Below are positions 12,784-45,475 of a stretch of 45,475 nt of DNA, one piece after another (position 1 is the stretch's first letter; the number at the start of each line of letters is the position of its first letter). This stretch comes from a bacterium (GTDB lineage Bacteria > Desulfobacterota > GWC2-55-46 > S146-80 > JALXFI01): contig JALXFI010000331.1 of the NCBI GenBank assembly GCA_027069035.1, forward strand, positions 1 through 45,475, read 5' to 3'. The translations under genes were made by a program, and so were the position numbers. The notes beneath the pieces are model-generated. The model searched no databases. It worked only from the letters and a program-made list of their open reading frames with translations, and was not told the origin of the DNA.

Positions 12784-12799
12784 CTGATATACTCTAAAC

Positions 12800-20145: not shown

Positions 20146-20180
20146 CTCATAAATCTCTTAATGAAATTACTATTATAAGC

Positions 20181-21470: not shown

Positions 21471-22466
21471 CTAACCTTCTATAACCTCATCTATTACAGC
21501 ATCTTTATAGCGATGACATGTCCTGCAGGGTTTCATCTCTAAACGTCGTTTTTCCATATGAAGTCTTCTAAGGCTCTCCATTTTCTCCCCCAACCACACT
21601 TCTTTAATAGTATTCTCTTTCAAGTTACCTATAGGTATGTCAATGTCCCAGTCCGCAATGCAGACCGGAATCAACCCTGTAGAGGTGATGGTTATCCTTT
21701 GCCATAGAAACTGACATACAACCTCTTCATCCTGCTCAACGCTTCTTAAATGATAATCATGTTTGATGTTAAAACTTATATTGTCTGTAATAGGTTTAAA
21801 CATCTCATAGTATTCTCTAAGTTTACCCTTCGTGTATTCATATATCCCCTGAACCTTCACCTTAGGAAACCCCTTTCCAAATCTTTCTTTGAGTTCATAG
21901 AGTTGTTTAACCTTTCTATATATGTCATCGAAGCTAAGGGGTGTACGAAGATTATTATAGTGTTCTCTGAGAGAATCGATACTGATTGTTATATAATCGA
22001 GACCTGCTTTAATAAGCTTCATGTCAAAGTCTTTACTAAGGGCAGAGCCATTGCTAAGCAGAGATATTTCCTTAATTCCGGCTTTTCTTGCATATTCGAT
22101 CATATCTATAAGCATAGGATTTAGCGTTGACTCACCTCTCCAGCTTAACCTTATCGAATAAAGATTGTTTGCAGCACATTCATTTATACCCTTCCTATAA
22201 AGATCGAAGTCCATGTCAACATATGCATGTTCCTTCTTAAAATGCCTTCTAAAACACATAGGACAGGTTAAATTGCAACGAGAACTTGCCTCAAAATCCA
22301 CATGCAATGGGAAAGGGGCCACATAAAACCAGCGAGGATAATTAAACCATTGGAAGCGATTTTGAAAATAATAAAGTGGGAATCGGCGCTCCTCTTCCCA
22401 ACGTCGCTGTCTTTCTCCTTCGTCTATGCATGCCTGATTTATATTTATCTTTGTCTTAAGCCTCAT
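21471..22466 (-). CDS. Radical SAM enzyme with a Cys-poor SPASM/twitch-like C-terminal domain (paralogue 1)
   Basis: CNLTCPMC (CxxxCxxC). C-terminal Cys set C(QFLW)...C(IADW)...CRTC. Start moved to the ATG at 22466, which has GGGAGG 7 nt upstream; the ORF-track ATG at 22481 lacks an SD. Confidence 0.85.
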   Translation of the reverse strand: MRLKTKININQACIDEGERQRRWEEERRFPLYYFQNRFQWFNYPRWFYVAPFPLHVDFEASSRCNLTCPMCFRRHFKKEHAYVDMDFDLYRKGINECAANNLYSIRLSWRGESTLNPMLIDMIEYARKAGIKEISLLSNGSALSKDFDMKLIKAGLDYITISIDSLREHYNNLRTPLSFDDIYRKVKQLYELKERFGKGFPKVKVQGIYEYTKGKLREYYEMFKPITDNISFNIKHDYHLRSVEQDEEVVCQFLWQRITITSTGLIPVCIADWDIDIPIGNLKENTIKEVWLGEKMESLRRLHMEKRRLEMKPCRTCHRYKDAVIDEVIEG

Positions 22467-22566
22467 TTTTAATCCTCCCATTATCGATTGCTCGAGTAAT
22501 ACAACTATTACTAAGCATCAGTCCCTCACTAATCAAAGTAACTCAATGGAGTCACCTATATGGCAC

Positions 22567-27010: not shown

Positions 27011-27744
27011 TCAATACCTCCAGATTTAGACCCTATGTAAGGATTTAAGTCCATTAAATATTTTTTTAAAGCAACTCCACCACAATTAAAAAGAAAATCA
27101 ATAACAGAAAGGTTTGGAATAAATTTAGAGCCAATTTGAGGATATTCATGTAACTCAAACTCCTGGAACTTAACCTCAATATGATTTCTCTTAAAATCAT
27201 CTAAGATTAGATATTCTTTCCCAGATTGTCCCGACAAATAAACACCTGCTTTAACTTTATTGCATATATCTAATATTAATTGACTTGCTTTTGAGACCAC
27301 GTCAAGCTTAGAACTTCTGACAATCTCAAGCTCAAAGTCAGAAATATCAAGTACAAACTCGATCAAAGAGAAATTAAAGTCAGCCAGAAATTTATGCTTT
27401 TGTCTATATATCTTCTCAAAAGAAGGGAAAATCTGATCGAAATATGGTGTTTTGTTATAGCAATGGTAAATACTTTTTAAATTTTTATCTTGCCAGTTCT
27501 CATTATAACTGATTTCTATATCTGAAATTAAGGTGTCTCTGGGGGCCTGTTTTATAGGTACAGTTATCCAGATATCTCTATCTTTATTTCTAATCTTGTT
27601 TCTATTTTCGAAATGTCTTCTTTTGAACTGAACACTATCAAGTATAACGTATATATCTGCATGAAATAATTTATGCCAAAATCCAAGCCATGGCAAGTGT
27701 TCTGGTTGATGTATTGTGCATATCTTTTGTCGCTCAACATACAT
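26995..27744 (-). CDS. WbqC-like family protein (function unknown; glycan loci)
   Basis: 249 aa. IHQPEHLPWLGFWHKLFHADIYVILDSVQFKRRHFENRNKI is the characteristic WbqC N-terminal pattern. Confidence 0.75.
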   Translation of the reverse strand: MYVERQKICTIHQPEHLPWLGFWHKLFHADIYVILDSVQFKRRHFENRNKIRNKDRDIWITVPIKQAPRDTLISDIEISYNENWQDKNLKSIYHCYNKTPYFDQIFPSFEKIYRQKHKFLADFNFSLIEFVLDISDFELEIVRSSKLDVVSKASQLILDICNKVKAGVYLSGQSGKEYLILDDFKRNHIEVKFQEFELHEYPQIGSKFIPNLSVIDFLFNCGGVALKKYLMDLNPYIGSKSGGIECQKL

Positions 27745-27749
27745 CTCTT

Positions 27750-29432: not shown

Positions 29433-29433
29433 C

Positions 29434-30750
29434 TTATTCCCAGGTATCACCTCCGAGTAATGTATATTTTAATCCATTTTCGTTCAGCTTATACCTCGAC
29501 CAAACCTCACATGTATCCATTACAATCTTTGTATCTTTTAAATATCTCTTCAATTTAGAACAACTTATCTTTTTATACTTACTATGAGCTGTAAGTACCA
29601 AGACAGCATCGAAAGAAGAGATATCTTCTGGAAAATCAACCACTTGAGTCTGAGTTATCTCATATAACGTAGCCTTTGAATACATAGGATCATTTATACC
29701 AACCTTTATACCTTTATCAGAAAATAGTTCTATAAATCTCAATGCAGGACTGTTGAGATGAAGTCTTGAATCAGGTCTATAAGACAACCCAAGAATTAGA
29801 ACCGACGACACTTTCTGAGAAAGAACCCTCTCAGAAATTATCTGAATCATTTCATAGTCTGTTCTCATTGCTTCATTTAATAGAGTTAAGCTCTCTGGCA
29901 CCTTGCTCGCTTCAGACAGGAAATAACTTGACATGGGAAAGTTAAATCCACCTATACCAGCCGTAGGGCGATATTCGTTAAGCTCAGGATGGGTTGCTGC
30001 AAGTTGTATCACCTTGTTGATGTTACACCCTGGAAATGCCTGAGAAAGTTGGTTTGCAAATGCCATATTTATATATTGAAATGAATTCTCAACACATCTC
30101 GCAAGTTCTACTTCAAAAAAGTTTTCAACTGTCACAATATTATCGTCGATAAGCTCGCAAATTTCCTTAGCCACTAACAGCGATTTATTATCATGACTGC
30201 CGATTAGTCTCCCTAAAGAAACATTCTTAACGTAAGGGTTATAATCCCAATCTCTTCTTGGAGCAACTACCATCAAGTAATCTTTACCTAAAGACTTGCC
30301 TGCCTCACTCAACGCAGGTATAACTATCTCCTCCATCGTTCCTGGTAGAAATGACGACTCCAATATTATTATTGGCTTGAGATTGTTTCTTAATATTGGG
30401 ATATCTTTGAGCTTATTAAGGACATTATAAAGATTTTGATATGTTGGTTTACCAGCCTTCTCCACGGGTACACATAAGAAGTGAACGAGTATGTCTTTTA
30501 GATTTATATTATCAATAGTTTTTAATGAACAATTCTCAAGCTCACCTTCCACAACCACATCATAAGCCCAGTATGTTTTTCTTAATTCTTTAAAATGTTG
30601 CTCTAATTGCTCAATAGTTTTATATTTTGTATCAATTAATATACAACTAATTCCTAATTCTGAATACTTTATTAAGGTATAATATCCTAAATATCCACTC
30701 CCCCATATCGCTATAGAGAAATTATTGTTAAGTAATTCTTTTGTATACAT
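29434..30750 (-). CDS. UDP-glucose/GDP-mannose dehydrogenase-family protein; catalytic Cys position apparently Asn
   Basis: 438 aa. IAIWGSGYLGYYTLIKY Rossmann motif. The central region TAGIGGFNFPMSS aligns by eye to the family GG-x-C-x-P-K-D motif with C replaced by N and K-D replaced by M-S. Confidence 0.7.
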   Translation of the reverse strand: MYTKELLNNNFSIAIWGSGYLGYYTLIKYSELGISCILIDTKYKTIEQLEQHFKELRKTYWAYDVVVEGELENCSLKTIDNINLKDILVHFLCVPVEKAGKPTYQNLYNVLNKLKDIPILRNNLKPIIILESSFLPGTMEEIVIPALSEAGKSLGKDYLMVVAPRRDWDYNPYVKNVSLGRLIGSHDNKSLLVAKEICELIDDNIVTVENFFEVELARCVENSFQYINMAFANQLSQAFPGCNINKVIQLAATHPELNEYRPTAGIGGFNFPMSSYFLSEASKVPESLTLLNEAMRTDYEMIQIISERVLSQKVSSVLILGLSYRPDSRLHLNSPALRFIELFSDKGIKVGINDPMYSKATLYEITQTQVVDFPEDISSFDAVLVLTAHSKYKKISCSKLKRYLKDTKIVMDTCEVWSRYKLNENGLKYTLLGGDTWE

Positions 30751-31442: not shown

Positions 31443-32210
31443 TTATACCTTTAAGAAAAGCCTGTCATAAGCATCTATCACGTTTTTAAGGTTCAACTGC
31501 TTTGAGTTCTCTCTCAGGAAGTTAACAATCTTAACAATCCTTTTATAATCCTCAGGCGTATCCATCGTAATTCTAACATCAGGTCGATTCTGCCAGTCTT
31601 TAGCATGTAGAGTTACGACATTAAAGTTATCTATATTCTCATGTATATAATCTACAACATGTTCGAAATGATTAGACTTATATGCCTTTTGATGAGATAT
31701 TTTTAGTGCTTTCAAGGTAACAATCTCTTCTTGAGCCCCAACTGGGAGATTTTTGATATATGTATAGTCTGCCTTTAGTGTCAAATGCTCTGCCAACATC
31801 CGTGCTGTTGAATTCATATCTGTTAAAGGGTCATCAGCTGTTGCTCTAACGATATCAGTTACACCAAAGTTTTCTGCACATTCAATATACCTCTTAAGCA
31901 CATTATCACTACTACCTGTTATATATTGCATCTTATAATCATCCAAAATAAGTCTTACAAGTTCTGCTTCTCTCTCTTCAGAAAGAGCCACATAAACCCT
32001 CTCTGTATCAAAATAATGTAAAAATCTCTTTACCAGAAAAACGATAGCAGGCATTCCAAATATTGGAGCTAATATCTTCGCATGAAGTCTTGAAGACCTT
32101 ATCCTTGCCTGGATAATAATTCCCCAACTTTTAGAGCTGGTAATTATATCTCTCTCTTTCTGCAAATCTTTACTCTTTTGTAGTGTTTCGACAAATAAAT
32201 TGTCTTTCAT
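31443..32210 (-). CDS. SpsF-like cytidylyltransferase (CTP_transf_3)
   Basis: 255 aa. IIIQARIRSSRLHAKILAPIFGMP, SDNVLKRY, IVRATADDPLTD. Confidence 0.75.
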   Translation of the reverse strand: MKDNLFVETLQKSKDLQKERDIITSSKSWGIIIQARIRSSRLHAKILAPIFGMPAIVFLVKRFLHYFDTERVYVALSEEREAELVRLILDDYKMQYITGSSDNVLKRYIECAENFGVTDIVRATADDPLTDMNSTARMLAEHLTLKADYTYIKNLPVGAQEEIVTLKALKISHQKAYKSNHFEHVVDYIHENIDNFNVVTLHAKDWQNRPDVRITMDTPEDYKRIVKIVNFLRENSKQLNLKNVIDAYDRLFLKV

Positions 32211-35520: not shown

Positions 35521-37269
35521 TCACATTATCCGTTTTAATTCTTCTGCCCACAATCTATACCAGTCTCTTCTGGTATAGGCATATCGCTCGCAAAACTCGT
35601 TACGTGCCTTCTGAACTTCTGGACTCAACCACCATTTTAATGGGTTATCGAATATCCTTTTAACTTTTTCTGCAGCACTTACAGGATCTTTATGAAGTAT
35701 CTCGACCCCTCTCAATAAATCAAAGTATTTCTCTGCCTCTGGTCTCATAAGAAATACACTATGGTCCCAATAGAGTACACAGGGGACATTTATAGCCAAT
35801 GCCTCAAGAAAAGAGGTGTAAGGATGATCTATAACTACAAGATATGCCCTTTGCATTAGTTCCGTCAACCTGCCTTTAGTGTTAAACTTTACCTCTGGAA
35901 CTATATTCCTTATATAATCTTCTTCAATCTCTCTCCATTCTTTATCTACATATAGTCTGTACAAAACCCTATTCTTAATTTTTTGTGGGAGTGCATTCAA
36001 AAACTGCTTCTTACTCTCGAAATACATTGCGATATCATCGGATCGTAGTGTAGTTACAAACTTAAAAACATATCTACGAACAACGTTACCAACATATACA
36101 ATATATTGGGAGCGCTTCGAGGGAGAGTATTTATCCCTGAGCCTTGATAGATGAGGACTGGGGAGTGGCTTAATATTCTCTCTACAACTCCAGCCCCATG
36201 TATAAAAAAAATCTTTCTCCTGAGCCATCTTCTCCTCTTGGTGAGCTAAAGCAGTTCCATAAATACCCCCATGTTGAAACTCTACTATCTTAGCTCCTTT
36301 TATCAATCTCTTTGCAGCAAAAAACTTAAAAGGCTCAAAAAGACGCCACCCTGTAGCAGAACCTATTATTTTCACAGCATCAAGCTTTCCTTTCTTATTC
36401 ACTAACTTATCATACATACCATAGTTTTCTACATATGATACCGGTATAGCGCCAGGGATGAGTTGCAACAATATTGATTTGAATATATCAGAAGAATTGT
36501 TATCAATGCTTAATCTTTTTCTCATATCATAAGAAAGAGCGACCTTACTACAATTTATTCCAGGGGTGTCAAAATTTATGTAAGAGAAATTTCTTATACC
36601 CAATCTTAAGATAAGAGAGAACCAGTCCCTTATAGCTAAATGGTTGTACATATAGCTTAATACAATATGGCCATTGAAAATCCATTCTAATGGTTTTAAT
36701 AAAGTGAGAAGTATTTTTCTCTTGCTACTATACCTCATGCCATAGGGGCTGGCCTTGTATTCATATTGTACCTCTTTTATTCTATCTGGGCATAGCTCAT
36801 AACTAATTAGGCTAAATAACTTAAGATTAAAATAATCTTCTTTTACAATTCGATTAATAAAATCATTTGTATCCAGCGTTATCAAATTACACTGCTCTCT
36901 TGGAAGCACATGGGTATAAAAGTCGAATAACATTAGGGCATTTTTCATCCTCCTAAATCTCTCATAAAGAACCTCTGTAAAAATTAAAAGCCAATCTCCA
37001 ACAAGAATCTTCCAATACTTCAAAGGATAAGATACGTTATGTATATAATTTAACCTTTCGGCTAATTGGGTCATTAACTCGTTGTATATATTATAACAGT
37101 AGTCGGCATCTTCCTTTATCTCAATAGCAGACTTCCATGGAGAAGCTGCTATAGGATAGTAAGGGTTATTCACCATGTTGTTCTTTAAACACCATGTGCC
37201 CAGCAGGATTACCTCCTTCTCTAAATCCCATATGTCTGATATCCTGGTTGTAGCAAGATAATATCTCAT
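35521..37269 (-). CDS. Large soluble putative transferase; resembles, from memory, the Leptospira LIC12162-type family found beside neuB/neuA genes
   Basis: About 582 aa from the ATG at 37269 (the ORF-track start is a TTG). IVEFQHGGIYG and YLVVIDHPYTSFLEALAINVPCVLYWD. The family call is unverified. Confidence 0.4.
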   Translation of the reverse strand: MRYYLATTRISDIWDLEKEVILLGTWCLKNNMVNNPYYPIAASPWKSAIEIKEDADYCYNIYNELMTQLAERLNYIHNVSYPLKYWKILVGDWLLIFTEVLYERFRRMKNALMLFDFYTHVLPREQCNLITLDTNDFINRIVKEDYFNLKLFSLISYELCPDRIKEVQYEYKASPYGMRYSSKRKILLTLLKPLEWIFNGHIVLSYMYNHLAIRDWFSLILRLGIRNFSYINFDTPGINCSKVALSYDMRKRLSIDNNSSDIFKSILLQLIPGAIPVSYVENYGMYDKLVNKKGKLDAVKIIGSATGWRLFEPFKFFAAKRLIKGAKIVEFQHGGIYGTALAHQEEKMAQEKDFFYTWGWSCRENIKPLPSPHLSRLRDKYSPSKRSQYIVYVGNVVRRYVFKFVTTLRSDDIAMYFESKKQFLNALPQKIKNRVLYRLYVDKEWREIEEDYIRNIVPEVKFNTKGRLTELMQRAYLVVIDHPYTSFLEALAINVPCVLYWDHSVFLMRPEAEKYFDLLRGVEILHKDPVSAAEKVKRIFDNPLKWWLSPEVQKARNEFCERYAYTRRDWYRLWAEELKRIM

Positions 37270-37271
37270 GA

Positions 37272-38336
37272 TCAAATCAGGTCATCAAATGTGATTTCAC
37301 TACCTATTTCCATATCTCTTATAATACACCTGCCTATAACCTCATCAATCTTATCGGCATTGACTCCCTTCTGTGATATAAGAGGCGAAATCATCTCTTC
37401 TTTCAAAATAGTACCTGCTTTTAAGGCACGGTTAACGTGCAAAGAACGCCTGAGCTGTCTCTTTGATTCCATTTCACATGGCTGGCATGTCTTCTTCACC
37501 TCTCCCAACATCTTTTCAAGTCGCCTTATCTCTTTTACAAGATTTTGCATATCCTTAGGGTCAGCAGATAAGGAATGGTCACCAAAACCCTGTGACTTAT
37601 CGAGTGTAAAATGCTTTTCTACAATACATGCCCCTAGCGCAACGGCACCTATACATGCAAGGTACCCTACAGTATGATCTGAGTATCCGACAGGCACATC
37701 ATCATATCTATTCATCAGAAAGGATATAGAGCGGAGATTTGTCTCTTCATCAGGGGTTGGATAAGATGAGACACAGTGGAGAAGGACTATCTTATCCATT
37801 GGAAATACTCCTATAGCCCTATCTATCTCTTCTAACTCTGCTTGACCTGTAGACAATATCACCGGCTTGTTCTTCGAAGCCACATGGCGAAGTAGCAAGA
37901 TGTTTATGAGATCACCTGAAGCAATTTTATATGCAGGCACAAGGGGTTCTAAGAAGTCCACCGAATCTTCATCGAAGGGTGTACATAAAAAATCAAGTCC
38001 ACATTCTTTTGAGAGCTTATACAGTTCCATCATCTGGTCATGATTGAGTTCAAGGGCTTTAAACCGCTCAAACTGGGTTTTATATCCAAGAGATTTGGCC
38101 CGTTTAAAAACAGGCACGGTTCTGGAAATAAACTTTTCAGCCTTATATAACTGAAACTTTACAGCATCAACACCAGTCTTTGCTGCCTCAAAGACCATTT
38201 GTTTAGCAAGAGAGAGGTCTCCATTGTGGTTGGTACCTATCTCTGCTATAATGTATATACTTTTATTAAACCGCTCAAAAAATTTATTTACACTTAAAGA
38301 GCTGTAGTTATCTTGCCTTGGTTCTGCTTTCCTCAT
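37272..38336 (-). CDS. NeuB-family ulosonic acid synthase, paralogue 2
   Basis: 354 aa. IIAEIGTNHNGD, LLHCVSSYPT, YSDHTVG, VEKHFTLDKS. SAF-like tail RRSLHVNRALKAGTIL. AGGTG SD 5 nt upstream. Confidence 0.9.
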   Translation of the reverse strand: MRKAEPRQDNYSSLSVNKFFERFNKSIYIIAEIGTNHNGDLSLAKQMVFEAAKTGVDAVKFQLYKAEKFISRTVPVFKRAKSLGYKTQFERFKALELNHDQMMELYKLSKECGLDFLCTPFDEDSVDFLEPLVPAYKIASGDLINILLLRHVASKNKPVILSTGQAELEEIDRAIGVFPMDKIVLLHCVSSYPTPDEETNLRSISFLMNRYDDVPVGYSDHTVGYLACIGAVALGACIVEKHFTLDKSQGFGDHSLSADPKDMQNLVKEIRRLEKMLGEVKKTCQPCEMESKRQLRRSLHVNRALKAGTILKEEMISPLISQKGVNADKIDEVIGRCIIRDMEIGSEITFDDLI

Positions 38337-38395: not shown

Positions 38396-39118
38396 TCATG
38401 CCTTCATCCCTCTTAAAATAACCAATCCTTCAAAAACTTTCATATCAAATGGGGTATCTATATCAAGGGACTCCTCCTGAGACACCACTATGCCTTTAAC
38501 ATTATCTCCTAAAGCAAAATTTTTACCATTCCAGTAATTAAGTAGAGACCTTTTTCTACCAAAGATAGCACCTGTCATACCATATGCCTCGGGTCTGTCC
38601 TGTTTCTGCTGGTAGCTTTCGGTAGTATATTCTGTAAGAGGAGAAATTCTGCTGGTTTCATTATCATATTTATAAGCCCTGAAGGGATGGAAGTGAATTA
38701 TCTTTGTTATAGTTACAACAGAATCACAATGAGTCTTCTCCATCAATCTTACTGCCAGTTTTATTGTTTCAGGTCTTATTAATGGAGAGGTGGGTTGTAT
38801 CGAAAAAACAAGGTCGTAATAACTATTCTGATTCTCAAGATATTCTACAGCATGTTTTACAACATAAACGAGTGAAACTTCATCTCTTGCAAATTCTTGA
38901 GGTCTTATAAAGGGTATCTCAATGGCAGGGTATCTCGAACTTACCACTTCGGCTATCTCTTCAGAGTCAGTAGATAGAACTACTCTATTAAAAGCCTCTG
39001 ATTCAAGGATGGTTTCTATCACATATCCTATCAATGGTTTTCCCCCTACTGTCACTATATTCTTTTTAGGAATTGCTTTAGAACCTCCCCTTGCAGGTAT
39101 GATGCATAATGTACCCAT
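38396..39118 (-). CDS. Acylneuraminate (CMP-ulosonic acid) cytidylyltransferase, NeuA-like
   Basis: 240 aa. LCIIPARGGSKAIPKKNIVTVGGKPLIGYVIE, IPFIRPQEFARDE, QPTSPL. Confidence 0.85.
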   Translation of the reverse strand: MGTLCIIPARGGSKAIPKKNIVTVGGKPLIGYVIETILESEAFNRVVLSTDSEEIAEVVSSRYPAIEIPFIRPQEFARDEVSLVYVVKHAVEYLENQNSYYDLVFSIQPTSPLIRPETIKLAVRLMEKTHCDSVVTITKIIHFHPFRAYKYDNETSRISPLTEYTTESYQQKQDRPEAYGMTGAIFGRKRSLLNYWNGKNFALGDNVKGIVVSQEESLDIDTPFDMKVFEGLVILRGMKA

Positions 39119-39128
39119 ACTGTTTAAG

Positions 39129-39893
39129 TTATTGAACTATACGCAATTTGGTATTGATAGAAGGATCTAAGACTTTCTCCTTTATCCTTCCTTCATGATC
39201 TATATGGGGATTGTTATCAAAAAACTCTATAATATCCAATAATGTAAATTCCTTGTTTTTTTTGTATAGATAATTGTATAACTTTTCAACCACTTCAAAA
39301 TCATCCTGAGTGTCAATCGTAACCGTATAATTGGGTCTATAATATTTATCTGAAGGACACCTGTATTTTGCATGTCTAAATACATGTGGGTGATCTTTAA
39401 AGTACAAGGTCATATATTCAGAGAAATTTGGGTCCACAGATAATTCCAGGCACTTCTTCATTGCCTTAAAGGAAATGATCTCTGGTCTTGTCCCCCGAGG
39501 TGTATCTTCTGTAAATGTGTAGTCAGCTCTCTCCTTTATATGGAGCTTCACCATCTCATCTATGATGAACGGATCGGTGAGGGGATTGTCTCCTGTGATA
39601 CGTACAATATGGTCAGCCAGATATTTTTCAGCTGCCTCTATAAAACGGAGCAAGACATTTTCTGGATGACCTCTAAATACCTTAAACCCGTATTCATTGG
39701 CAAAGACCTCTATAGGATCATCTCCAGGGAGGGTAGAGGTACAGATAACAGTATCAACAGGTACCTTTGCCATCCTCACTCTTTGCATGAGATGCCAAAG
39801 GATAGATTTTCCCTCTATGGTTTTTAGTGCCTTACCAGGCAATCTCTTTGACTTCATCCTTACAGCAACAAGATTAACAACTATCGGCTTCAT
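39129..39893 (-). CDS. SpsF-like cytidylyltransferase (CTP_transf_3)
   Basis: VAVRMKSKRLPGKALKTIEGKSIL, FRGHPENVLLRF, IVRITGDNPLTDP. I prefer the ATG at 39893 over the TTG at 39905. Confidence 0.8.
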   Translation of the reverse strand: MKPIVVNLVAVRMKSKRLPGKALKTIEGKSILWHLMQRVRMAKVPVDTVICTSTLPGDDPIEVFANEYGFKVFRGHPENVLLRFIEAAEKYLADHIVRITGDNPLTDPFIIDEMVKLHIKERADYTFTEDTPRGTRPEIISFKAMKKCLELSVDPNFSEYMTLYFKDHPHVFRHAKYRCPSDKYYRPNYTVTIDTQDDFEVVEKLYNYLYKKNKEFTLLDIIEFFDNNPHIDHEGRIKEKVLDPSINTKLRIVQ

Positions 39894-40908
39894 ATAGATC
39901 TTCAAGACGTATTGCCTTATTGGCAGGTATGAAGTGCTTTGTTTTCTTTAGGACTCTCTTATATCTATCAGGAGGTAATCCCTCCTCTTCTGTCCTCTTA
40001 AAAGAGAGGTCTTCTAAGGTAATGAGGTGACCTTTAGGTATATCTCTTGAAGCCACTATCTTCTTTTTCATCAGTCGTCTATAAGTAACTTCAGCTTTGC
40101 TCTCACCTGGTACTATCTCATTTATACCGTACGCCTTTTCTATCTGTCTCACCATTCCTACCAATCGTGCAAACTCATCTGGATTTAATGCAGAATAGTA
40201 ATCACGCCCCTTCTTTGACCTATCAAGAGTAATATGTTTTTCTATTACACTCACACCATAACCAATAGCAACGAGGGGAAGTGAGAGAGCAAGTTCTGAC
40301 TCAGCATCTATATGATCAGCAAAACCTAAATGATAAGGATATCTTTCCTTCAATACATTAAGTAGTCTGAAATTGGTATCATCAATACGTGTTGGAAAAC
40401 CTTGAAAACCATGCATTAAAATGATGTTCTTATTGCCAATTTTTTCTATATTTTGGATTGCATAGCTTATCTCTGTCTCTGTTGCTGCACCTACTGAGAG
40501 AATAAGAGGCTTCATAGTAGCTGCTACATATTTGAGTAAGAATGGATTAGTCAAGTCAGATGTAGGGATTTTATAAGCTGATATATCCAGTTTTTCAGCC
40601 AGTTTGAAACTCCTTTCATCAAAAACCTCTGAAACAACAAACAAACCTATTCTTCTAGAATATTCGATAATTTCATACCACTGTTCATCAGAGAATTGAA
40701 GCTGCTTAAAACTTGGATACTTATGATGATTAGGGACTATAAGATTATCTGTATTTAATATTTGATACTTAATAGCATCTGCCTCTGTCATCGAGACAGC
40801 ATCAGCTATCCTCTTAGCAAGTTCAACATCGCCCTCATGACTGGAAGCCGTTTCTGCTATAACGAATATAGATTCAAAAGGTTTAATTAAGGCTCCATTG
40901 AGTTCCAT
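39874..40908 (-). CDS. NeuB/SpsE-family ulosonic acid synthase, paralogue 3 (divergent N-terminal motif)
   Basis: FVIAETASSHEGD where AEIGxNHNGD is expected. FADHIDA, VIEKHITLDRS, and SAF-like tail KKKIVASRDIPKGHLITL. I prefer the ATG at 40908 (MELNGALIK...), one nt after the upstream TGA, over 40965. Confidence 0.85.
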   Translation of the reverse strand: MELNGALIKPFESIFVIAETASSHEGDVELAKRIADAVSMTEADAIKYQILNTDNLIVPNHHKYPSFKQLQFSDEQWYEIIEYSRRIGLFVVSEVFDERSFKLAEKLDISAYKIPTSDLTNPFLLKYVAATMKPLILSVGAATETEISYAIQNIEKIGNKNIILMHGFQGFPTRIDDTNFRLLNVLKERYPYHLGFADHIDAESELALSLPLVAIGYGVSVIEKHITLDRSKKGRDYYSALNPDEFARLVGMVRQIEKAYGINEIVPGESKAEVTYRRLMKKKIVASRDIPKGHLITLEDLSFKRTEEEGLPPDRYKRVLKKTKHFIPANKAIRLEDLYEADSC

Positions 40909-40909
40909 A

Positions 40910-41911
40910 TCACTTCCATCGGTATGTTGTTGGTCTGAAACAGGTTCGACACGCAGGTATGTCATCCAATTCTATCTTTCTTATCTTATCTCTTAATCTA
41001 TTCAATGTGGCACCATGCCATATCTCTTCAATCGACTGTTTATAGTAATCTCCCACCACTGTCTTTCTGTTCCAGTCACCACAACACATAAGAACCTTAC
41101 CGTCCCGATTGATATTCAATCTTTGCCATGGCTGTTCACAAAACCTTCTTCCAATCGGTCTCTTGCCGTCTCTAAATGGATATCCATCCTCGACATAGCG
41201 ATCTTGATTTTCGATAATCGCTATATTATCAACTCCTCTGCCCTTCCAGAAGTTGATGAACTGCTCAACCTCTCTCTCTGTTTCATAATAATTTACCATT
41301 TGGACACGAATAAAGGGTCTCTTTACGCCCTTCTGTTTCTTTACCTTTATGAAAGTTTCTATATTTCTAATTAGCTTATCATAATCTCCCCCAACCCTTA
41401 TCTTCTCATAAGACTCCTTAGTTGCTCCATCTACTGAGAATATGATTCGATCAAGCCCTGCATCTACCAAGTCCTCAACCTTCTTTCTGTTTGCAGGCAG
41501 TCCATTCGTATTAAACTGGACCTCAAGTACCCCTTTATTCTTTGCATAACGGACAAATTCAACCAGGTTTTTATGAAGCATGGGCTCGCCCCTAAAATTA
41601 AACTTTATCGAATACACACCAAGTTCGGCACATTCGTCTATCGCTTTATATGCAAGGGTTGGTTCTATAAAACCTGCGTTGGGCACCCCTTTTATTCCAT
41701 GGACACACATAATGCATCTCAGATTACACGCATCACTTACCTCTATATCTACATGAAGTGGAACATTACTTAATATTCTGAATTTGGGATAATAATTCCA
41801 TTTCAAACGATAAAGCCAGTAGCGAAAATCTCTACCCCTTTTCACAATATTATTCACATAACCCTTTATCCCTGTCCTATCTACTATATTTTTCTTATAT
41901 TTGTAATGCAT
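40910..41911 (-). CDS. Radical SAM enzyme with a Cys-poor SPASM/twitch-like C-terminal domain (paralogue 2)
   Basis: 333 aa. CNLRCIMC. C-terminal C(EQPW)...CC(GDW)...CRTC. Collinear with the 21471-22466 product, including the N-terminal W-x-Y-P-x-F...PLHVD extension. Confidence 0.85.
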   Translation of the reverse strand: MHYKYKKNIVDRTGIKGYVNNIVKRGRDFRYWLYRLKWNYYPKFRILSNVPLHVDIEVSDACNLRCIMCVHGIKGVPNAGFIEPTLAYKAIDECAELGVYSIKFNFRGEPMLHKNLVEFVRYAKNKGVLEVQFNTNGLPANRKKVEDLVDAGLDRIIFSVDGATKESYEKIRVGGDYDKLIRNIETFIKVKKQKGVKRPFIRVQMVNYYETEREVEQFINFWKGRGVDNIAIIENQDRYVEDGYPFRDGKRPIGRRFCEQPWQRLNINRDGKVLMCCGDWNRKTVVGDYYKQSIEEIWHGATLNRLRDKIRKIELDDIPACRTCFRPTTYRWK

Positions 41912-41915
41912 TAAC

Positions 41916-43952
41916 CTATACCGTGTTGATTATACAAGGTTGACGAAGTAACTTTTTTGTATTGACCTTCGCGAGTATCCTTGAAATGCCAATCAAATCA
42001 GTGCCATATATCTTCTTAAATCTTTTTATCGTGTCAAGTTGCTCTTCAGTATGTCTGAATACAATAAGCCTCTCTTTATAACAGCCTATTCCTTCTCCCA
42101 AAAGATAGAATCCCCTTTGCTTAATGATTGAGTCGAAATCAAATTTTGATATCATCTTAATAGCTACGGTATTGTCTTCAAATAATCCTTTGGCTTGTGA
42201 AACACAATAAGTAACCACCTCTTTTATACAATCTCTTTGCAAATTGTTAAGTTTACCTATATGCTGGGATAGAATTTTCAATGCGCTTCTTAATACTACC
42301 TCACCCATCTCTCCTATATATTGCAGCATACCCAAAGATTTATACTTAAATAATAGATTACTTCCATACTCACCACTGATATACTTATCAATGTTCTCTT
42401 TAAGGTATCTATATAAAGCCTCTTTATTTTCCCATAACTCACCTCTGGTCTCGTTCAAAAAGTCATCAAAAAGTCTATTCAGCCTCTCTGGTACCGGGTT
42501 ATTATAAATATCCTTAAGCAACTTAAATATAGGGATAGACTCACTCTTGAAAAGTTGATGAAGCGGATAAAAAAGACCGTCGTTATAAAACAGAGCGACT
42601 ATTAAATGCATCTTCCTACATTGAAGATACTCGTCAAAGCTCATACTATCTGTTGATACAACCACTTCTTCAATCTCAGCGGAAGTCAATCTATCACCAT
42701 TATACTCGAAAAAGCCAAAGCATCTTGGAATCACTCTGTATCTGGTTATCAATCCAAATCTCTTACGATACTCAGTTGACCACATCTCAGAACCAGGTAA
42801 CAACATTAATGTATAAAGGTTTATATAATTGAATCCCATGTCTATTAACTCCGCAATACTTTTAAAATGGGATTCCTTAGTCTCTCCAGGTAATGCAAGA
42901 ATCAATTCACTGTAACTATTAGCCCCTGATGCTGTAGCTTCTATGGCAAGATGAAGCAGTTGTTTTTTGGAGATATTGCTGCGTTTTATGTTAGAGAGTA
43001 CAACTTTATCCATGCTTTGCACAGAACCAGCAACCCGTAGAGCCCCATCGATTAGCTGACCACCTTTTATTATCCTATCTTTATTGGACTTTCCAGTAGA
43101 CACATTAACATAAGACGGCCATCCGAACTCTTTCCGACACTGGCTAATGAGTTCAAACGTAAAGTAGTCCTCTCTGAACATACCAAAATTGGAATCAGCT
43201 ATATGGAGGTCAGCCCGCCCTCCACAATCTACTACTGGTTTTATACGTCGTGCTATATAAAATAACTCTTCACGGATATAATTCAAAGGCTTTCTATTAA
43301 TTTTATTATAATACCTAGCACCTTCACAGCAATATGTGCATCTGAATGGACAACCACGAACTGTCTGAATGATTGGAAGAAATCTTCCGTCAAAAAATTC
43401 ATCTAACACTCCCTGTGTATATGGAGAGGGTATATCTCCAAGATCTTCAATACGTGGGGCGGAATGATTCAAGACCACCTTATTTTTACTTTTTGAAAAA
43501 TAATGTATAGAAGGAACATCCACATCCACCTGAGGTCTAATATCAGTTGATAGCAATTCTTTTATCAATTGACTAAAGGGCAACTCCCCCTCCCCCACCA
43601 CATAATAATCTATAGCAGCATGTTTCCTTAAAAACTCCTCCCTGCTATGCTTGTCCTGAGGGTAATTAGGTCCACCAAATACAATAGTAGTTTCTGGATG
43701 CCATTTACGTATCTCTTTGGCAAAGATATAACTAAGATTGAAATTCCATGCATAATTGGAGAAACCAATAACTTCCGGCACTTCTATAGATAAAGCCTCT
43801 ACTAACTGTTTAGGTGTCTTAAAAATACGCAAGGCAACAGAATCACCCAAAACTTTTGAAGTATAGGTAGCAATACAACCAATAGCATAAGGCATAATGT
43901 CAGAGGCAATTGTCTGTTGTGTATATGTTAGATCAACCAAGAATATTAACAT
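41916..43952 (-). CDS. B12-binding-domain radical SAM enzyme (class B, methyltransferase-like) with a long C-terminal extension
   Basis: 678 aa. N-terminal cobalamin-binding-like Rossmann region (VIGFSNYAWNFN...IVFGGPNYP...YYVVGEGE). VRGCPFRCTYC cluster motif. About 250-aa uncharacterised tail. Confidence 0.8.
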   Translation of the reverse strand: MLIFLVDLTYTQQTIASDIMPYAIGCIATYTSKVLGDSVALRIFKTPKQLVEALSIEVPEVIGFSNYAWNFNLSYIFAKEIRKWHPETTIVFGGPNYPQDKHSREEFLRKHAAIDYYVVGEGELPFSQLIKELLSTDIRPQVDVDVPSIHYFSKSKNKVVLNHSAPRIEDLGDIPSPYTQGVLDEFFDGRFLPIIQTVRGCPFRCTYCCEGARYYNKINRKPLNYIREELFYIARRIKPVVDCGGRADLHIADSNFGMFREDYFTFELISQCRKEFGWPSYVNVSTGKSNKDRIIKGGQLIDGALRVAGSVQSMDKVVLSNIKRSNISKKQLLHLAIEATASGANSYSELILALPGETKESHFKSIAELIDMGFNYINLYTLMLLPGSEMWSTEYRKRFGLITRYRVIPRCFGFFEYNGDRLTSAEIEEVVVSTDSMSFDEYLQCRKMHLIVALFYNDGLFYPLHQLFKSESIPIFKLLKDIYNNPVPERLNRLFDDFLNETRGELWENKEALYRYLKENIDKYISGEYGSNLLFKYKSLGMLQYIGEMGEVVLRSALKILSQHIGKLNNLQRDCIKEVVTYCVSQAKGLFEDNTVAIKMISKFDFDSIIKQRGFYLLGEGIGCYKERLIVFRHTEEQLDTIKRFKKIYGTDLIGISRILAKVNTKKLLRQPCIINTV

Positions 43953-45328
43953 TACGACAATTCCTCCAAGATCTTTTCAGCAACCCAGTAACTGAATTCA
44001 TCTTCTATCTTCCAAGAATCCTTTGGAGACATCTCTACATGACCGACCTTGCTTCCAAGAAAGCTGTTTTTATACAGATTCTTTGTTTTAATTACATAGA
44101 TAGAACCATTTTCTTTGTAAATGGTATTTTTATCTTCTCTCAAAAGGCGTTTTTGATATCCCACGGGAGCTAATCCATACTTGTCAGGCTTCCAGTGGAA
44201 TGTGAGGTCAACTACAACCCCTATAACAGAGTCTGTATTATATAAAAGGATTGTATCGATCGCTTCTGTTATATGTTTTTCTTTTCTAAAAGGAGTAAAA
44301 TACTGTAACTGGACGATCAGGTCAGGAACATCTTCTTCTCTCTCTTTAAAGACCTCAATCATGTGCCGTAATACATTATCAAAGGGAACACTGGTTCTGG
44401 CGAGTTCCACAGGCCTTAAAAACGGGACCTCGGCTCCAAACTTCTTAGATACCTCTGCTATCTCCTGATCTTCGGTGGAGACTATCACACGATCAATCAA
44501 TTCAGTTTTTAATGCCTCTTCAATTGTGTAGGCAATAAGAGGCTTCCCATTTAAAGGCTTGAGGGCAAGTTTCTCTCTATTCCTGAACAAACCCATCGCA
44601 GGAATAACAGCGATTATATTTTTCCCTTCATAGTACTGCTTTTTATCAACAAACTTCTTCTTGACATATCTTCTCGCCTCCATCCGAGCTTCAAAGTTGT
44701 TTGACATGCTTACATCATGCTTTCTGTAATACATAAGTGGCAGATTAACATTATAGACATTGAACTTATCAATAAATCTAATCCAAAAATCATAATCTTC
44801 TTGATATCTTAACTCTTCGCTATACCCACCTATAGCATCATAACATTCTCTTCTGAACATAGCGCCTGCTGCAAGGGGATTACGGTCCAGAAGTTTGACC
44901 TCGTCATTCACCTTCTGTAAACGATAGGAATCTATTATCTCTCCGTATTTGTTAATACGATAATAATCTGGATAAACCATATGGATGTTAGGATCGCTGT
45001 CGAGTATATACGACTCTATTAGTAGGATATTCTCATCAAAGTAATCATCCGCATCCAGTCTGATAATATATCTTCCTTTTGAAGCCCTTATACCTGTATT
45101 GCATGCCTTAGCAAGCCCCACACCTTCAGTTGTAATAACCTCTATTTTCTCGGGGTACTTGTTCTTGTAGTGATTGAGTATTACAGGAGTACTGTCTGTA
45201 CTGCCATCATCCACTACTATCATCTCCCAGTCAGTAAATCTCTGTTTTATAACACTATCAAGACACTGTGGTAGATATTTCCCATAGTTGTGGGCTGTAA
45301 CTATAACGCTAACCTTTACTTCTGACAT
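43952..45328 (-). CDS. Fusion protein A: N-terminal GT2 domain (intact DxD) plus C-terminal CTP_transf_3 cytidylyltransferase-like domain
   Basis: VSVIVTAHNYGKYLPQCLDSV, VVDDGSTD, IRLDADDYF; then IIAVIPAMGLFRNREKLALKPLNGKPLIAYTIEEA, RVIVSTED, GAEVPFLRP. Start set at the ATG at 45328 (MSEVKV), which has AAGGTGGG 5 nt upstream; the ORF-track start at 45358 is a TTG. Confidence 0.75.
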   Translation of the reverse strand: MSEVKVSVIVTAHNYGKYLPQCLDSVIKQRFTDWEMIVVDDGSTDSTPVILNHYKNKYPEKIEVITTEGVGLAKACNTGIRASKGRYIIRLDADDYFDENILLIESYILDSDPNIHMVYPDYYRINKYGEIIDSYRLQKVNDEVKLLDRNPLAAGAMFRRECYDAIGGYSEELRYQEDYDFWIRFIDKFNVYNVNLPLMYYRKHDVSMSNNFEARMEARRYVKKKFVDKKQYYEGKNIIAVIPAMGLFRNREKLALKPLNGKPLIAYTIEEALKTELIDRVIVSTEDQEIAEVSKKFGAEVPFLRPVELARTSVPFDNVLRHMIEVFKEREEDVPDLIVQLQYFTPFRKEKHITEAIDTILLYNTDSVIGVVVDLTFHWKPDKYGLAPVGYQKRLLREDKNTIYKENGSIYVIKTKNLYKNSFLGSKVGHVEMSPKDSWKIEDEFSYWVAEKILEELS

Positions 45329-45475
45329 CTTTACCCACCTTTTGTAAAAAATACTCAAAGGTCATTTTCAGTCCAGCATACAGGTCCCATTTAGGTTCAA
45401 ACCCCAATATCTGCCTCGCCTTTGAGATATCAGAGAAGTTCCTTCTAACATCGCCAGAGCGAGTATCTCCATAAA
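45309..45475 (-). CDS. Extended SDR NAD-dependent sugar epimerase/dehydratase (GalE/WbpP-like); C-terminal fragment, 5' end outside the window
   Basis: My translation of the minus strand gives YGDTRSGDVRRNFSDISKARQILGFEPKWDLYAGLKMTFEYFLQKVGKDVRSKG-stop. The GD-x-R...DISKA...LG-x-P-K pattern is the typical C-terminus of this family. Its TAG at 45309-45311 overlaps the next gene by 20 nt. Confidence 0.7.
   Translation of the reverse strand, partial: YGDTRSGDVRRNFSDISKARQILGFEPKWDLYAGLKMTFEYFLQKVGKDVRSKG

Follow-up and report, generated by a model that had tools for sequence, protein, structure and literature searches.

Two radical SAM enzymes in a ulosonic-acid gene cluster: candidate C-methylation and radical tailoring of nonulosonic acids

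Organization of the locus

The window (the whole stretch of DNA analyzed, 45,475 nucleotides from a bacterium of the Desulfobacterota) contains a run of minus-strand genes in which two radical SAM enzymes lie among ulosonic-acid synthases and cytidylyltransferases. In the direction of transcription, a 468-aa fusion of a GT2 glycosyltransferase and a CTP_transf_3 cytidylyltransferase (43952..45358) is followed by a class B (cobalamin-dependent) radical SAM enzyme of 678 aa and predicted TokK/CysS type (41916..43952), a 333-aa radical SAM enzyme whose auxiliary-cluster domain is of the abridged SPASM, or twitch, type (40910..41911), the divergent PEP-condensing ulosonic-acid synthase NeuB-3 (39874..40908), a KdsB-like CTP_transf_3 cytidylyltransferase of 258 aa (39129..39905), another of 240 aa and of the PseF-like CMP-nonulosonic acid (CMP-NulO) synthetase type (38396..39118), and a second synthase, NeuB-2 (37272..38336). 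The stop of the fusion gene overlaps the start of the 678-aa gene, a 4-nt gap (41912-41915) separates the latter from the 333-aa gene, and the stop codon (TGA) of the 333-aa gene extends to 40910, leaving one nucleotide before the NeuB-3 ATG at 40908, which is preceded by GGAAG; an alternative, longer NeuB-3 ORF starting at 40965 would overlap the 333-aa gene by 56 nt. An earlier sequence-only reading had described the B12-binding and the second radical SAM gene with exactly this spacing to each other and to NeuB-3, and the ORFs and Pfam domains confirm it. Because hundreds of full-length homologues exist for each, the 678-aa and 333-aa proteins are not chance ORFs. Two further proteins of the window, glucose-1-phosphate cytidylyltransferase and CDP-glucose 4,6-dehydratase, score above the respective equivalog cut-offs. 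Judged jointly with the rest of the explanation developed below, we are somewhat inclined to regard the window as a one-strand, Wzx/Wzy-type surface-glycan cluster making several CMP-activated ulosonic (sialic-acid-like) sugars.

In Pfam, the fusion protein contains Glycos_transf_2 (108 bits, residues 17-110) and CTP_transf_3 (60 bits, residues 265-440), and NeuB-3 contains PF03102 NeuB (178 bits) and PF08666 SAF (27 bits). NeuB-3 keeps histidine at both H-containing motifs, LMHG and ADH, compared with LLHC and SDH in PDB 6ncs; we take these two histidines to be the metal-binding pair. Against the models for N-acetylneuraminate synthase (NeuB_NnaB, TIGR03569, cut-off 399.65) and pseudaminic acid synthase (PseI, TIGR03586, cut-off 340.25), NeuB-3 scored 213 and 181, NeuB-2 (NeuB domain, 269 bits) 332 and 276, and NeuB-1, which belongs to a second sub-cluster, 306 and 272. 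As all three fall below the cut-offs, no sugar can be assigned to any of these synthases. The 240-aa cytidylyltransferase (CTP_transf_3, 91 bits) likewise scored 146 bits against PseF (TIGR03584), below the cut-off of 205.7, and no protein of the cluster reached a Neu, Pse or Leg equivalog cut-off in NCBIfam. The 258-aa cytidylyltransferase (89 bits) is a conserved partner directly downstream of NeuB-3-type synthases, and the N-terminal third of TIGR04321, the spiro-SPASM fusion model, matches it as well.

Synteny with other genomes, which also supports the assignment of both cytidylyltransferases and NeuB-2, delimits a conserved module in the order GT2-cytidylyltransferase fusion, twitch radical SAM enzyme, NeuB-3 type, cytidylyltransferase, cytidylyltransferase, NeuB-2 type. 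Two loci (L162 and L163) carry orthologous modules in the order of the window, with 54-72% identity and without the B12 gene; their fusion orthologues are 70-72% identical and lie directly before the twitch gene. Three others (L005, L020 and L086) possess the module with a B12 gene, but at a different position. Since the closest relatives of the twitch module are devoid of the B12 gene, the methylase appears to be an optional add-on.

The second sub-cluster includes, together with NeuB-1, a PseG-like gene, a methyltransferase, a GFO/IDH/MocA gene, a sugar-acid dehydratase, a CTP_transf_3 gene, a second GT2-cytidylyltransferase fusion and a 336-aa radical SAM/SPASM-twitch protein (21471..22481, minus strand). 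The last had been presented as a copy of the 333-aa enzyme accompanying NeuB-1. The two proteins are indeed collinear, whereas the close pairing did not hold, as their identity is 29% (E 6e-43) and the 336-aa gene is two genes away from NeuB-1 rather than adjoining it. By alignment and Pfam, the 336-aa protein is thus a distant paralogue belonging to a different subfamily.

The two radical SAM enzymes

The 678-aa protein matches PF02310 (B12-binding) at 40.2 bits (cut-off 32.1, residues 14-129) and PF04055 (Radical_SAM) at 32.7 bits (cut-off 29.5), and its CX3CX2C motif, RGCPFRCTYC, provides C201, C205 and C208, which are invariant in 56 aligned homologues. In a search of PDB sequences, TokK (3e-40) and CysS (6e-33) were found, with the family profile giving 1.3e-63 and 1.7e-54, respectively. 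The AlphaFold2 model (pLDDT 90.7) was aligned by Foldseek with TokK (7kdx) over its whole length (664-719 columns, E 5e-35, TM 0.73-0.77) and with CysS (9n1b) at TM 0.70/0.75; the next-best fold, OxsB, reached a TM of only 0.47 (E 2e-15), and AprD4 was also among the matches (E 4e-11). Three parts can be distinguished: a B12 Rossmann domain, the radical SAM core (C201-x3-C205-x2-C208) and a TokK-type C-terminal domain, the last of which had been left as an unassigned tail of about 250 aa in the sequence-only reading. This large third domain is described as distinct to TokK, and the invariant W69 of the 678-aa family (motif S-x-Y-x-W-N) aligns with TokK Trp76, a residue that sits under the lower face of the corrin and is common to CysS and ThnK but not widespread in other methylases (TokK paper).

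The best NCBIfam matches of the 678-aa protein are all methyltransferases (KedN5, a P-methyltransferase and a RiPP C-methyltransferase). The top match, the KedN5 family NF033712, scored 159.8 bits over profile positions 14-398 of 624, short of its cut-off of 700 bits; by profile score, the protein is a member of a subfamily related to, but separate from, the KedN5 family. The family of the 678-aa protein is large and has no name. Hopanoid, lipid and bacteriochlorophyll enzymes had been considered as competing affiliations, and their models scored far lower (HpnJ 33, HpnR 25, ladderane 32 and BchE 40 bits, that is, at most 40 against 160 for KedN5), which places the enzyme with the C-methylases TokK, CysS and KedN5. 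Thus, by sequence and modeled fold, the 678-aa protein is a TokK/CysS-like cobalamin-dependent radical SAM enzyme along its full length and a predicted C-methyltransferase.

TokK/ThnK, which carries out C6 alkylation of carbapenems, and CysS, which extends an alkoxy group in cystobactamid, share with the 678-aa protein the B12 Rossmann domain, the radical SAM core, the large C-terminal domain, CX3CX2C and the sub-corrin tryptophan; however, the identity in structural alignments is only 18-23%, and while these enzymes belong to antibiotic clusters, the 678-aa family is found in NulO and surface-glycan clusters. Our reading of the alignment is that TokK Trp215 and Arg280 are replaced in the 678-aa family by an invariant E210 and by N283, and with these substrate residues changed, no substrate can be transferred from TokK. 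The crystal structures of TokK and CysS contain pantetheinylated substrates, whereas a cytidylylated sugar would be the likely substrate of the 678-aa enzyme. GenK, GenD1 and Fom3 are class B radical SAM methylases acting on sugar or carbinol carbons; GenK and Fom3 convert a CH2OH carbon into CH(CH3)OH, and the substrate of Fom3, CMP-hydroxyethylphosphonate, is CMP-linked, paralleling the cytidylyltransferase-rich context of the 678-aa gene. None of these three was among the NCBIfam or PDB sequence matches of the 678-aa protein.

The 333-aa protein (Radical_SAM 67.1 bits; SPASM PF13186 52.9 bits) carries its radical SAM cluster in CNLRCIMC (C62/C66/C69), and five further cysteines (C258, C276, C277, C321 and C324) are invariant in 59 homologues. 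Their pattern, C258-x17-C276(C277)...C321-x2-C324, amounts to one auxiliary set, and the CX2CX5CX3C block of the seven-cysteine SPASM motif is absent from the homologue alignment. BtrN was the best match both in a phmmer search of PDB sequences (4.4e-14) and in Foldseek with the AlphaFold2 model (pLDDT 91.6; BtrN 4m7t, E 2.3e-14, TMt 0.74), followed by BlsE (2.2e-12 in Foldseek). From sequence and model together, the protein is a BtrN-like twitch-domain radical SAM enzyme, and the class B and twitch-type assignments made originally for the two proteins both hold. BtrN (2-deoxy-scyllo-inosamine dehydrogenase) and BlsE (cytosylglucuronate decarboxylase) also combine a radical SAM core with one auxiliary cysteine set and act on small sugar or cyclitol substrates. 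With 17-19% identity to them, the 333-aa family differs in an N-terminal extension, conserved and about 50 aa long (Y34, R35, W38, P51), in the fifth invariant cysteine (C277) and in its context of NeuB and cytidylyltransferase genes.

Two named families were matched by the 333-aa protein at scores below their cut-offs: N_Twi_rSAM (NF033640) gave 79.8 bits in two stretches against a cut-off of 170, and spiro-SPASM (TIGR04321) gave 92.8 bits against 250, over positions 225-482 only. As positions 20-218 of the latter model resemble the cytidylyltransferases of the cluster and positions 225-482 the twitch enzyme, a described family fuses both functions in a single polypeptide, whereas in the window they are encoded by separate genes.

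Gene neighborhoods and distribution

Neighborhoods were counted on naive ORFs with the window's own proteins as probes, keeping the best 80 loci per scan, and the counts stand without a formal random-locus control. For the B12 gene, 81 loci from species-level genomes were considered within a 10-kb radius. NeuB was present in 44 of them and CTP_transf_3 or the GT2-cytidylyltransferase fusion in 50 (43 and 14 separately), so that at least one of the three occurred in 52/81 (64%). Among close homologues (at least 540 bits and at least 8 kb of flank; 38 loci in many phyla), NeuB and/or a CMP-sugar synthetase lay within 10 kb in 31 (82%) and both in 25 (66%), while the corresponding figure for distant homologues was 4/15. 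Only 26-38% of loci contained homologues of the window's generic GT4 and SDR proteins; among the B12 loci, a hydrolysing UDP-GlcNAc 2-epimerase was present in 28/81, an ABC transporter in 22 and other radical SAM-SPASM genes in 14-15; some loci have acyl-tailoring genes (2-hydroxyacid dehydrogenase, formyltransferase, deacetylase) beside NeuB. For the twitch enzyme, NeuB, a cytidylyltransferase or the fusion was present in 35/40 metagenome loci of at least 5 kb, and NeuB was directly downstream in 18/44. The association of both radical SAM families with neuB and CTP_transf_3 is therefore conserved.

The B12 and twitch enzymes do not form an obligate pair, as the closest twitch modules are without the B12 gene and a twitch homologue is present in only about 10% of the B12 loci. 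No gene is consistently adjacent to the B12 gene across loci, and the context is thus silent on which intermediate its product acts on. More distant B12 homologues occur without NeuB, with CDP-glucose genes or with carbamoyltransferases and other radical SAM genes, indicating that the wider B12 family is not NulO-specific.

The B12 loci are distributed over Alpha-, Beta-, Gamma- and Deltaproteobacteria, Nitrospira/Nitrospirae, Omnitrophota, Acidobacteria, Planctomycetota and Chloroflexi, the candidate-phyla-radiation groups Saccharibacteria and Parcubacteria, and, in archaea, Thaumarchaeota, Woesearchaeota, Promethearchaeota and Methanosarcinales. Homologues in the aerobic taxa Thalassospira, Pelagibius, Pelagibacteraceae, a marine group I thaumarchaeote, Nitrospira and Streptomyces mean that an anaerobic host, as suggested earlier, is not implied.

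Proposed function and alternative explanations

The canonical NulO pathways (NeuC/NeuB/NeuA, PseB-I and LegB-I) have in common with this cluster NeuB synthases, CTP_transf_3 synthetases and PseG-/PseF-like proteins; compared with the NulO pathways found in literature searches, the module adds the radical SAM enzymes and the GT2-cytidylyltransferase fusion. No paper describing a radical SAM step on the way to NulOs came up in these searches, in line with the sequence-only reading, which knew of none. Taken together, we find it rather more plausible than otherwise that a cytidylylated ulosonic-acid pathway is modified at this locus by radical chemistry, through C-methylation and redox tailoring. 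Both radical SAM enzymes probably build carbon-modified sugars whose biosynthesis is not yet described.

The 333-aa enzyme would use a 5'-deoxyadenosyl radical to abstract hydrogen from a sugar C-H, leading to a dehydrogenation, epimerisation, dehydration or decarboxylation like those of BtrN, BlsE, DesII or AprD4, and its substrate could be a cytidylylated sugar intermediate feeding, or derived from, the condensation with PEP by NeuB-3. The 678-aa enzyme would be an optional C-methyltransferase inserted into the module as a tailoring gene. Following the usual mechanism of the class, one SAM would methylate cob(I)alamin, a second would generate the 5'-deoxyadenosyl radical that abstracts hydrogen from an unactivated carbon, and a methyl radical would pass from methylcobalamin to that carbon. 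The target may be a NulO-pathway intermediate, a CMP-NulO or a hexosamine precursor; like its closest relatives, the enzyme could methylate repeatedly. This would yield an ulosonic acid that is C-methylated or chain-extended; were the terminal carbon the one methylated, on the model of GenK and Fom3, a C10 backbone would result. The C-methylated or branched NulO suggested in the sequence-only reading is a candidate product.

An unlikely, though serious, alternative is that the B12 enzyme alkylates a substituent of the NulO (N-acetyl, O-methyl or glyceroyl-type, giving propionyl, ethyl or isopropyl), as CysS and KedN5, the latter making an isopropoxy group, extend a methoxy group, with the nine-carbon backbone kept. 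Sequence gives no distinction between a substituent and a backbone target, and GenK and Fom3 illustrate that class B methylation of sugar or carbinol carbons occurs too; on the other side, the closest characterized relatives build alkyl groups iteratively, with three methylations by TokK (TokK paper) and CysS described as iterative, and acyl-tailoring genes adjoin NeuB in some of the B12-homologue loci.

It seems to us improbable that the B12 enzyme modifies a different sugar in this glycan, for example a CDP-6-deoxyhexose or a non-NulO hexosamine, with NeuB nearby simply because both genes belong to surface-glycan clusters. The CDP-glucose genes of the window are consistent with it, as are distant B12 homologues beside RfbF/RfbG-like genes in 4/15 loci and one in a NeuB-less cluster on an Azospirillum plasmid; however, NeuB and CTP_transf_3, and not GT4 or SDR genes, are the commonest partners in the close clade, and the module has the B12 gene at two different sites, flanked in each case by NulO genes. 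It is more doubtful still that the B12-domain enzyme is not a methylase and instead catalyzes ring contraction, rearrangement, cyclisation or dehydration of a sugar, like OxsB, HpnJ, BchE or AprD4. Class B relatives that are not methylases do exist (OxsB, BchE and HpnJ), OxsB and AprD4 are among the fold matches, and the substrate-contacting residues differ from those of TokK, but three features of the 678-aa protein, its fold over the full length, its third domain and its sub-corrin tryptophan, are specific to the TokK/CysS methylase subgroup, and the best family matches are methyltransferases throughout. Finally, it is most improbable that the 333-aa protein matures a peptide or protein (a RiPP or a glycoprotein acceptor, for instance) instead of modifying a sugar. 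Peptides are the substrates of most characterized SPASM enzymes, the fold matches of the 333-aa protein include SuiB, SkfB, anSME and EpeE, and metalloenzyme maturases head its NCBIfam matches; yet its best sequence and fold matches are the sugar enzymes BtrN and BlsE, it has one auxiliary cysteine set and not the seven-cysteine SPASM pattern, its gene directly precedes NeuB in a conserved sugar module, where spacings of 1-4 nt leave no precursor-peptide gene evident, and a fusion family joins such an enzyme to a cytidylyltransferase-like domain.

Returning to tailoring of the ulosonic-acid pathway itself, "higher-carbon" (C10 and larger) CMP-activated ulosonic acids have been detected by mass spectrometry in Magnetospirillum gryphiswaldense and Methanococcus, in a series at m/z 679.1983, 693.2139 and 707.2296 with CH2 spacing and unassigned genes (PMC8157484; bioRxiv 10.64898/2026.04.20.719630). 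We tentatively suggest, with low confidence, that the TokK-like family might be the missing step for these C10+ CMP-ulosonic acids, methylating, possibly iteratively, the terminal carbon of a CMP-NulO or hexosamine precursor, and that the twitch radical SAM/NeuB-3 module might lead to a further ulosonic acid not yet described. If true, chain-extended, sialic-acid-like sugars would form a class found in many phyla of bacteria and archaea, with SAR11 and Thaumarchaeota among the carriers.

Gene layout and the surrounding cluster

The B12 enzyme, a 678-aa protein with B12-binding and Radical_SAM domains (Pfam), is encoded at 41916-43952 on the minus strand, and the twitch enzyme, a 333-aa protein with Radical_SAM and SPASM domains, at 40910-41911 on the same strand, the two genes being separated by 4 nt in the ORF table. 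The stop codon of the twitch gene (TGA, 40912-40910) is followed, one base on, by the ATG of NeuB-3 at 40908, with GGAAG ahead of it; this third gene (39874-40908) encodes NeuB and SAF domains, and if its start were placed at 40965, the longer ORF would overlap with the twitch gene. Both the spacing and the motifs described in the sequence-only reading were recovered in this way.

The window has 37 ORFs of 150 aa or more, all on the minus strand, and jointly they make up a surface-glycan cluster. Domain and family assignments comprise three NeuB paralogues, five free-standing CTP_transf_3 genes, two natural fusions of GT2 with a CMP-sugar synthetase-like domain (GT2-CTP_transf_3, 43952-45358 and 16379-17731), a Wzx flippase, a PseG-like gene, amidotransferases, deacetylases and glycosyltransferases. 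No protein of the window belonging to the pathways of nonulosonic (sialic-acid-like) acids (NulOs) reached an NCBIfam equivalog cut-off. RfbF (glucose-1-phosphate cytidylyltransferase) and RfbG (CDP-glucose 4,6-dehydratase) of the CDP-glucose pathway (12800-14769) both exceeded theirs, indicating that the cluster makes a CDP-6-deoxyhexose as well. A LIC12162-family transferase gene (35521-37275; TIGR04331, 401 bits against a cut-off of 225) is placed directly after NeuB-2 (37272-38336) and ahead of the flippase gene, with a homologue in the related metagenome locus L162, and its product is a candidate NulO transferase.

A second radical SAM-SPASM gene, at 21471-22481(-), had been read as a copy of the twitch gene accompanying NeuB-1. 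The two proteins are indeed collinear, but they share only 29% identity, and the gene sits two genes from NeuB-1 rather than adjoining it; it is a distant paralogue. Directly downstream of it, at 18502-21386(-), are genes for a galactarate/altronate-dehydratase-like protein (scoring 254 bits, short of the cut-off, against galactarate dehydratase) and a GFO/IDH/MocA oxidoreductase, a sugar-acid dehydratase being an unexpected component of a glycan cluster. Genes for a sulfatase-family protein, WbqC with an AsnB-like amidotransferase, and a FemAB-like protein (25637-29450 and 6247-7263(-)) suggest further amidation or aminoacylation of sugars. The sole sizeable intergenic gap of this tightly packed one-strand cluster (12347-12799, 453 bp) may hold an internal promoter. 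No Rfam family, hence no cobalamin riboswitch, and no tRNA was found in the window. The same locus in a second assembly (L167; ENA ERZ23491342 scaffold_12, 113.7 kb) reaches past the low-coordinate end of the window and adds genes for Wzy_C, an SDR, a Glycos_transf_4 initiating transferase, an MFS transporter, a MazE/PIN toxin-antitoxin pair and IMPDH.

Family and fold of the two enzymes

The best NCBIfam match of the 678-aa protein was the KedN5 family of methylcobalamin-dependent C-methyltransferases, at 160 bits far under the cut-off of 700, and the models for HpnJ, HpnR, BchE and the ladderane lipid enzyme scored just 25-40 bits. Its only strong sequence matches in the PDB were TokK (3e-40) and CysS (6e-33), and a profile built from 56 homologues matched the same two proteins at 1.3e-63 and 1.7e-54. 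An AlphaFold model computed from the 56-homologue alignment (pLDDT 90.7, pTM 0.91) superposed on TokK over its full length (664-719 columns, TM 0.73-0.77) and on CysS with TM 0.70/0.75, while the next fold match, OxsB, reached a TM of just 0.47. Since the model follows TokK from end to end, the C-terminal stretch of about 250 aa, previously considered unassigned, is the third domain of the TokK type, which in TokK contributes to substrate binding (TokK paper).

The cluster cysteines C201, C205 and C208 are invariant across the homologues. The invariant W69 is aligned with TokK Trp76, a residue lying 3.8 Å below the cobalt that is common to CysS and not widespread in other methylases (TokK paper). 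In our reading of the alignment, TokK Trp215 is replaced by an invariant glutamate (E210) and TokK Arg280 by N283. As the substrate residues of TokK are not kept, the substrate must differ from that of TokK. Four arginines, R406, R446, R658 and R670, are also conserved. Phosphonate P-methylation was rejected as a function: the Sden_1168 and PhpK models gave only 59 and 33 bits, and the Pfam assignments include no PEP mutase.

For the 333-aa protein, the best PDB sequence match was BtrN (4e-14), followed by BlsE. Its model (pLDDT 91.6) gave the same order by fold, with BtrN (E 2e-14, TMt 0.74) and BlsE (2e-12) ahead of peptide-modifying SPASM enzymes, MoaA, DesII and viperins. Eight cysteines are invariant among 59 homologues, namely C62, C66 and C69 together with C258, C276, C277, C321 and C324. 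The family shows the arrangement C-x17-C...C-x2-C, which from BtrN we take to be the twitch (abridged SPASM) pattern, and holds no CX2CX5CX3C block. In addition, positions 225-482 of the spiro-SPASM model (NCBIfam TIGR04321) match the twitch enzyme, and the N-terminal part of that model is matched by cytidylyltransferases of the window, including those at 39129-39905 and 31443-32210. The described family therefore apparently fuses a cytidylyltransferase-like domain with a radical SAM enzyme of this kind, and this speaks for a functional connection of cytidylyltransferase and radical SAM enzyme.

Conservation of the gene neighbourhood

The twitch gene was surveyed in 80 metagenome loci with the window proteins as probes. 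Among the loci listed, NeuB, CTP_transf_3 or a GT2-CTP fusion was present in 35 of the 40 twitch loci of at least 5 kb, and in 18 of 44 loci the gene immediately downstream of the twitch gene was a co-oriented NeuB. The gene order that recurs is (SDR), GT2-CTP fusion, twitch gene, NeuB-3 type, 258-aa cytidylyltransferase, 240-aa cytidylyltransferase and NeuB-2 type, corresponding in the window to cytidylyltransferases at 39129-39905(-) and 38396-39118(-), although the place of the fusion gene varies between loci. The first fusion type (43952-45358) is kept in this module, with orthologues 49-72% identical elsewhere; it would be uncommon for a transferase to be joined to the enzyme that activates a labile CMP-sugar.

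The closest relatives among the loci listed, L162 and the Omnitrophica MAG locus L163, keep the window order at 54-72% identity per protein, and in both the fusion gene directly abuts the twitch gene with no B12 gene in between. The two radical SAM genes are thus not the obligate pair that had been proposed. Each of these loci also holds a third type of radical SAM-SPASM gene, located directly before a second NeuB in L163; the L162 contig stops before any second NeuB. L163 is the nearest syntenic relative to bear a taxon label, and the host of the window is thus probably of a similar kind. Of the module instances among the loci listed, only four carry a B12 gene: in the window it separates the fusion gene from the twitch gene, and in L005, L020 (identical in sequence to L088) and L086 it separates the twitch gene from NeuB-3. 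Its presence in few modules and at differing positions indicates an optional tailoring gene for which several positions are possible. A recent horizontal insertion of the B12 gene was rejected, its GC content of 36.6% being the cluster average, with no sign of such an event in base composition.

The B12 enzyme itself belongs to a large family with generic names only (1443 proteins at E ≤ 1e-5), the best 120 of which are all full-length and 42-55% identical. Relatives were found in species-level genomes of many phyla (153 proteins), including the cultured Thalassospira lucentensis, Pelagibius, Nisaea and Streptomyces, as well as Pelagibacteraceae, a marine group I thaumarchaeote and Nitrospira; an anaerobic host, as had been supposed, is not implied by such carriers. 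Full-length homologues of about 42% identity occur in single-cell or MAG genomes of Pelagibacteraceae (L021, L022) and of the thaumarchaeote (L015), with NeuB about 5 kb downstream in L022.

Within 10 kb of the B12 gene, NeuB was found in 44 of all 81 loci listed, CTP_transf_3 or the fusion in 50, and either in 52 (64%). Among 38 loci of close homologues (≥540 bits, ≥8 kb of flank) the corresponding numbers were 27, 29 and 31, with both present in 25, and among 15 loci of distant homologues (<480 bits) NeuB, CTP_transf_3 or the fusion, either and both were each found in 4, RfbF-like genes occurring instead in 4 of the 15. By a rough estimate, which is not a computed value, NeuB would be expected in well under 1% of random 20-kb windows. 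These counts rest on naive ORF calls and on the best 80 loci per scan, many of them incomplete, and they undercount divergent NeuB and CTP genes because the window's own proteins served as neighbour probes. CDP-6-deoxyhexose-type genes adjoin distant homologues in L061, L066, L080 and L081.

Unbiased clustering of neighbours returned a hydrolysing UDP-GlcNAc 2-epimerase in 28 loci, an ABC transporter in 22 and other radical SAM-SPASM proteins in 14-15. Single-linkage clustering merged NeuB, CTP, SDR and GT2 into one cluster, and its figure of 66 of the 81 loci was set aside in favour of family-wise counts. No adjacent family dominated among the immediate neighbours of the B12 gene, for which coordinates are approximate. 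In the plasmid collection, one full-length homologue (36% identity) was found on the Azospirillum oryzae KACC 14407 plasmid NZ_CP054615.1 (218961-244955), and ThnK of Streptantibioticus cattleyicolor was also recovered. The Azospirillum cluster, with three more radical SAM genes, two carbamoyltransferase-domain genes, GNAT, methyltransferases and no annotated NeuB, is a different, likewise uncharacterised context of the wider family. Taken together, the conserved neuB/CTP context and the low scores to hopanoid-type (HpnJ, HpnR), BchE and ladderane models leave the proposed radical tailoring of a ulosonic-acid pathway standing.

Proposed chemistry and its significance

The folds, motifs and conserved context are established, and the remainder of the mechanism is drawn from the chemistry of the enzyme classes. 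In the B12 enzyme, cob(I)alamin would be methylated by SAM, a second SAM would yield the 5'-dA radical, this radical would abstract hydrogen from an unactivated carbon, and a methyl radical would pass from methylcobalamin to that carbon. GenK and Fom3 convert CH2OH to CH(CH3)OH, and the substrate of Fom3 is CMP-linked. By analogy, if a CMP-NulO or its hexosamine precursor were methylated at the terminal carbon, a ten-carbon backbone would result. The twitch enzyme may carry out a reaction initiated by H-abstraction on a cytidylylated sugar (oxidation, epimerisation, dehydration or decarboxylation), coupled to the condensation by NeuB-3. All nearest relatives of the B12 enzyme methylate iteratively (TokK, CysS papers).

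Full-text literature searches turned up no publication that connects radical SAM enzymes with NulO biosynthesis, in line with the sequence-only reading, the nearest item being a listing of a pair of uncharacterised phase-variable radical SAM genes in Campylobacter fetus. Potential C10 ulosonic acids have been reported in M. gryphiswaldense and Methanococcus (Kleikamp et al. 2020, PMC8157484). The SugarBase preprint (bioRxiv 10.64898/2026.04.20.719630) gives CMP-activated species at m/z 679.1983, 693.2139 and 707.2296 and a C10 marker fragment at m/z 311.10, and in the passages covered no biosynthetic gene assignment for the three species was found. The C9 marker fragment is at m/z 297.09. The search on higher-carbon ulosonic acids retrieved no further paper. 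Their CH2 spacing is the output expected of an iterative methylase, which we regard as a lead and not as evidence. The best 120 matches to the Telmatospirillum homologue of the B12 enzyme included no Magnetospirillum-named protein.

Sialic-acid-like sugars are present on flagella, S-layers, capsules and lipopolysaccharides and affect recognition by phages and immune systems. To our knowledge, the described NulO pathways all modify these sugars by polar reactions at N and O atoms. If true, the phylum-spanning link of two radical SAM families to NulOs would bring radical C-H chemistry, C-methylation and chain extension to these sugars and provide a concrete candidate gene for the unexplained C10 ulosonic acids. 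B12 methylases of the TokK/CysS type, hitherto from antibiotic pathways, would then reach primary cell-surface glycans. The hypothesis is directly testable in cultured carriers of the B12 gene, Thalassospira lucentensis DSM 14000 (NZ_ATWN01000002.1, 319749-341770) and Pelagibius sp. 7325. It would also mean a hidden need for vitamin B12 in surface-glycan synthesis by environmental microbes, and a cobalamin-dependent surface-glycan enzyme in SAR11-type and thaumarchaeal organisms would matter for the ecology of B12 in the sea.
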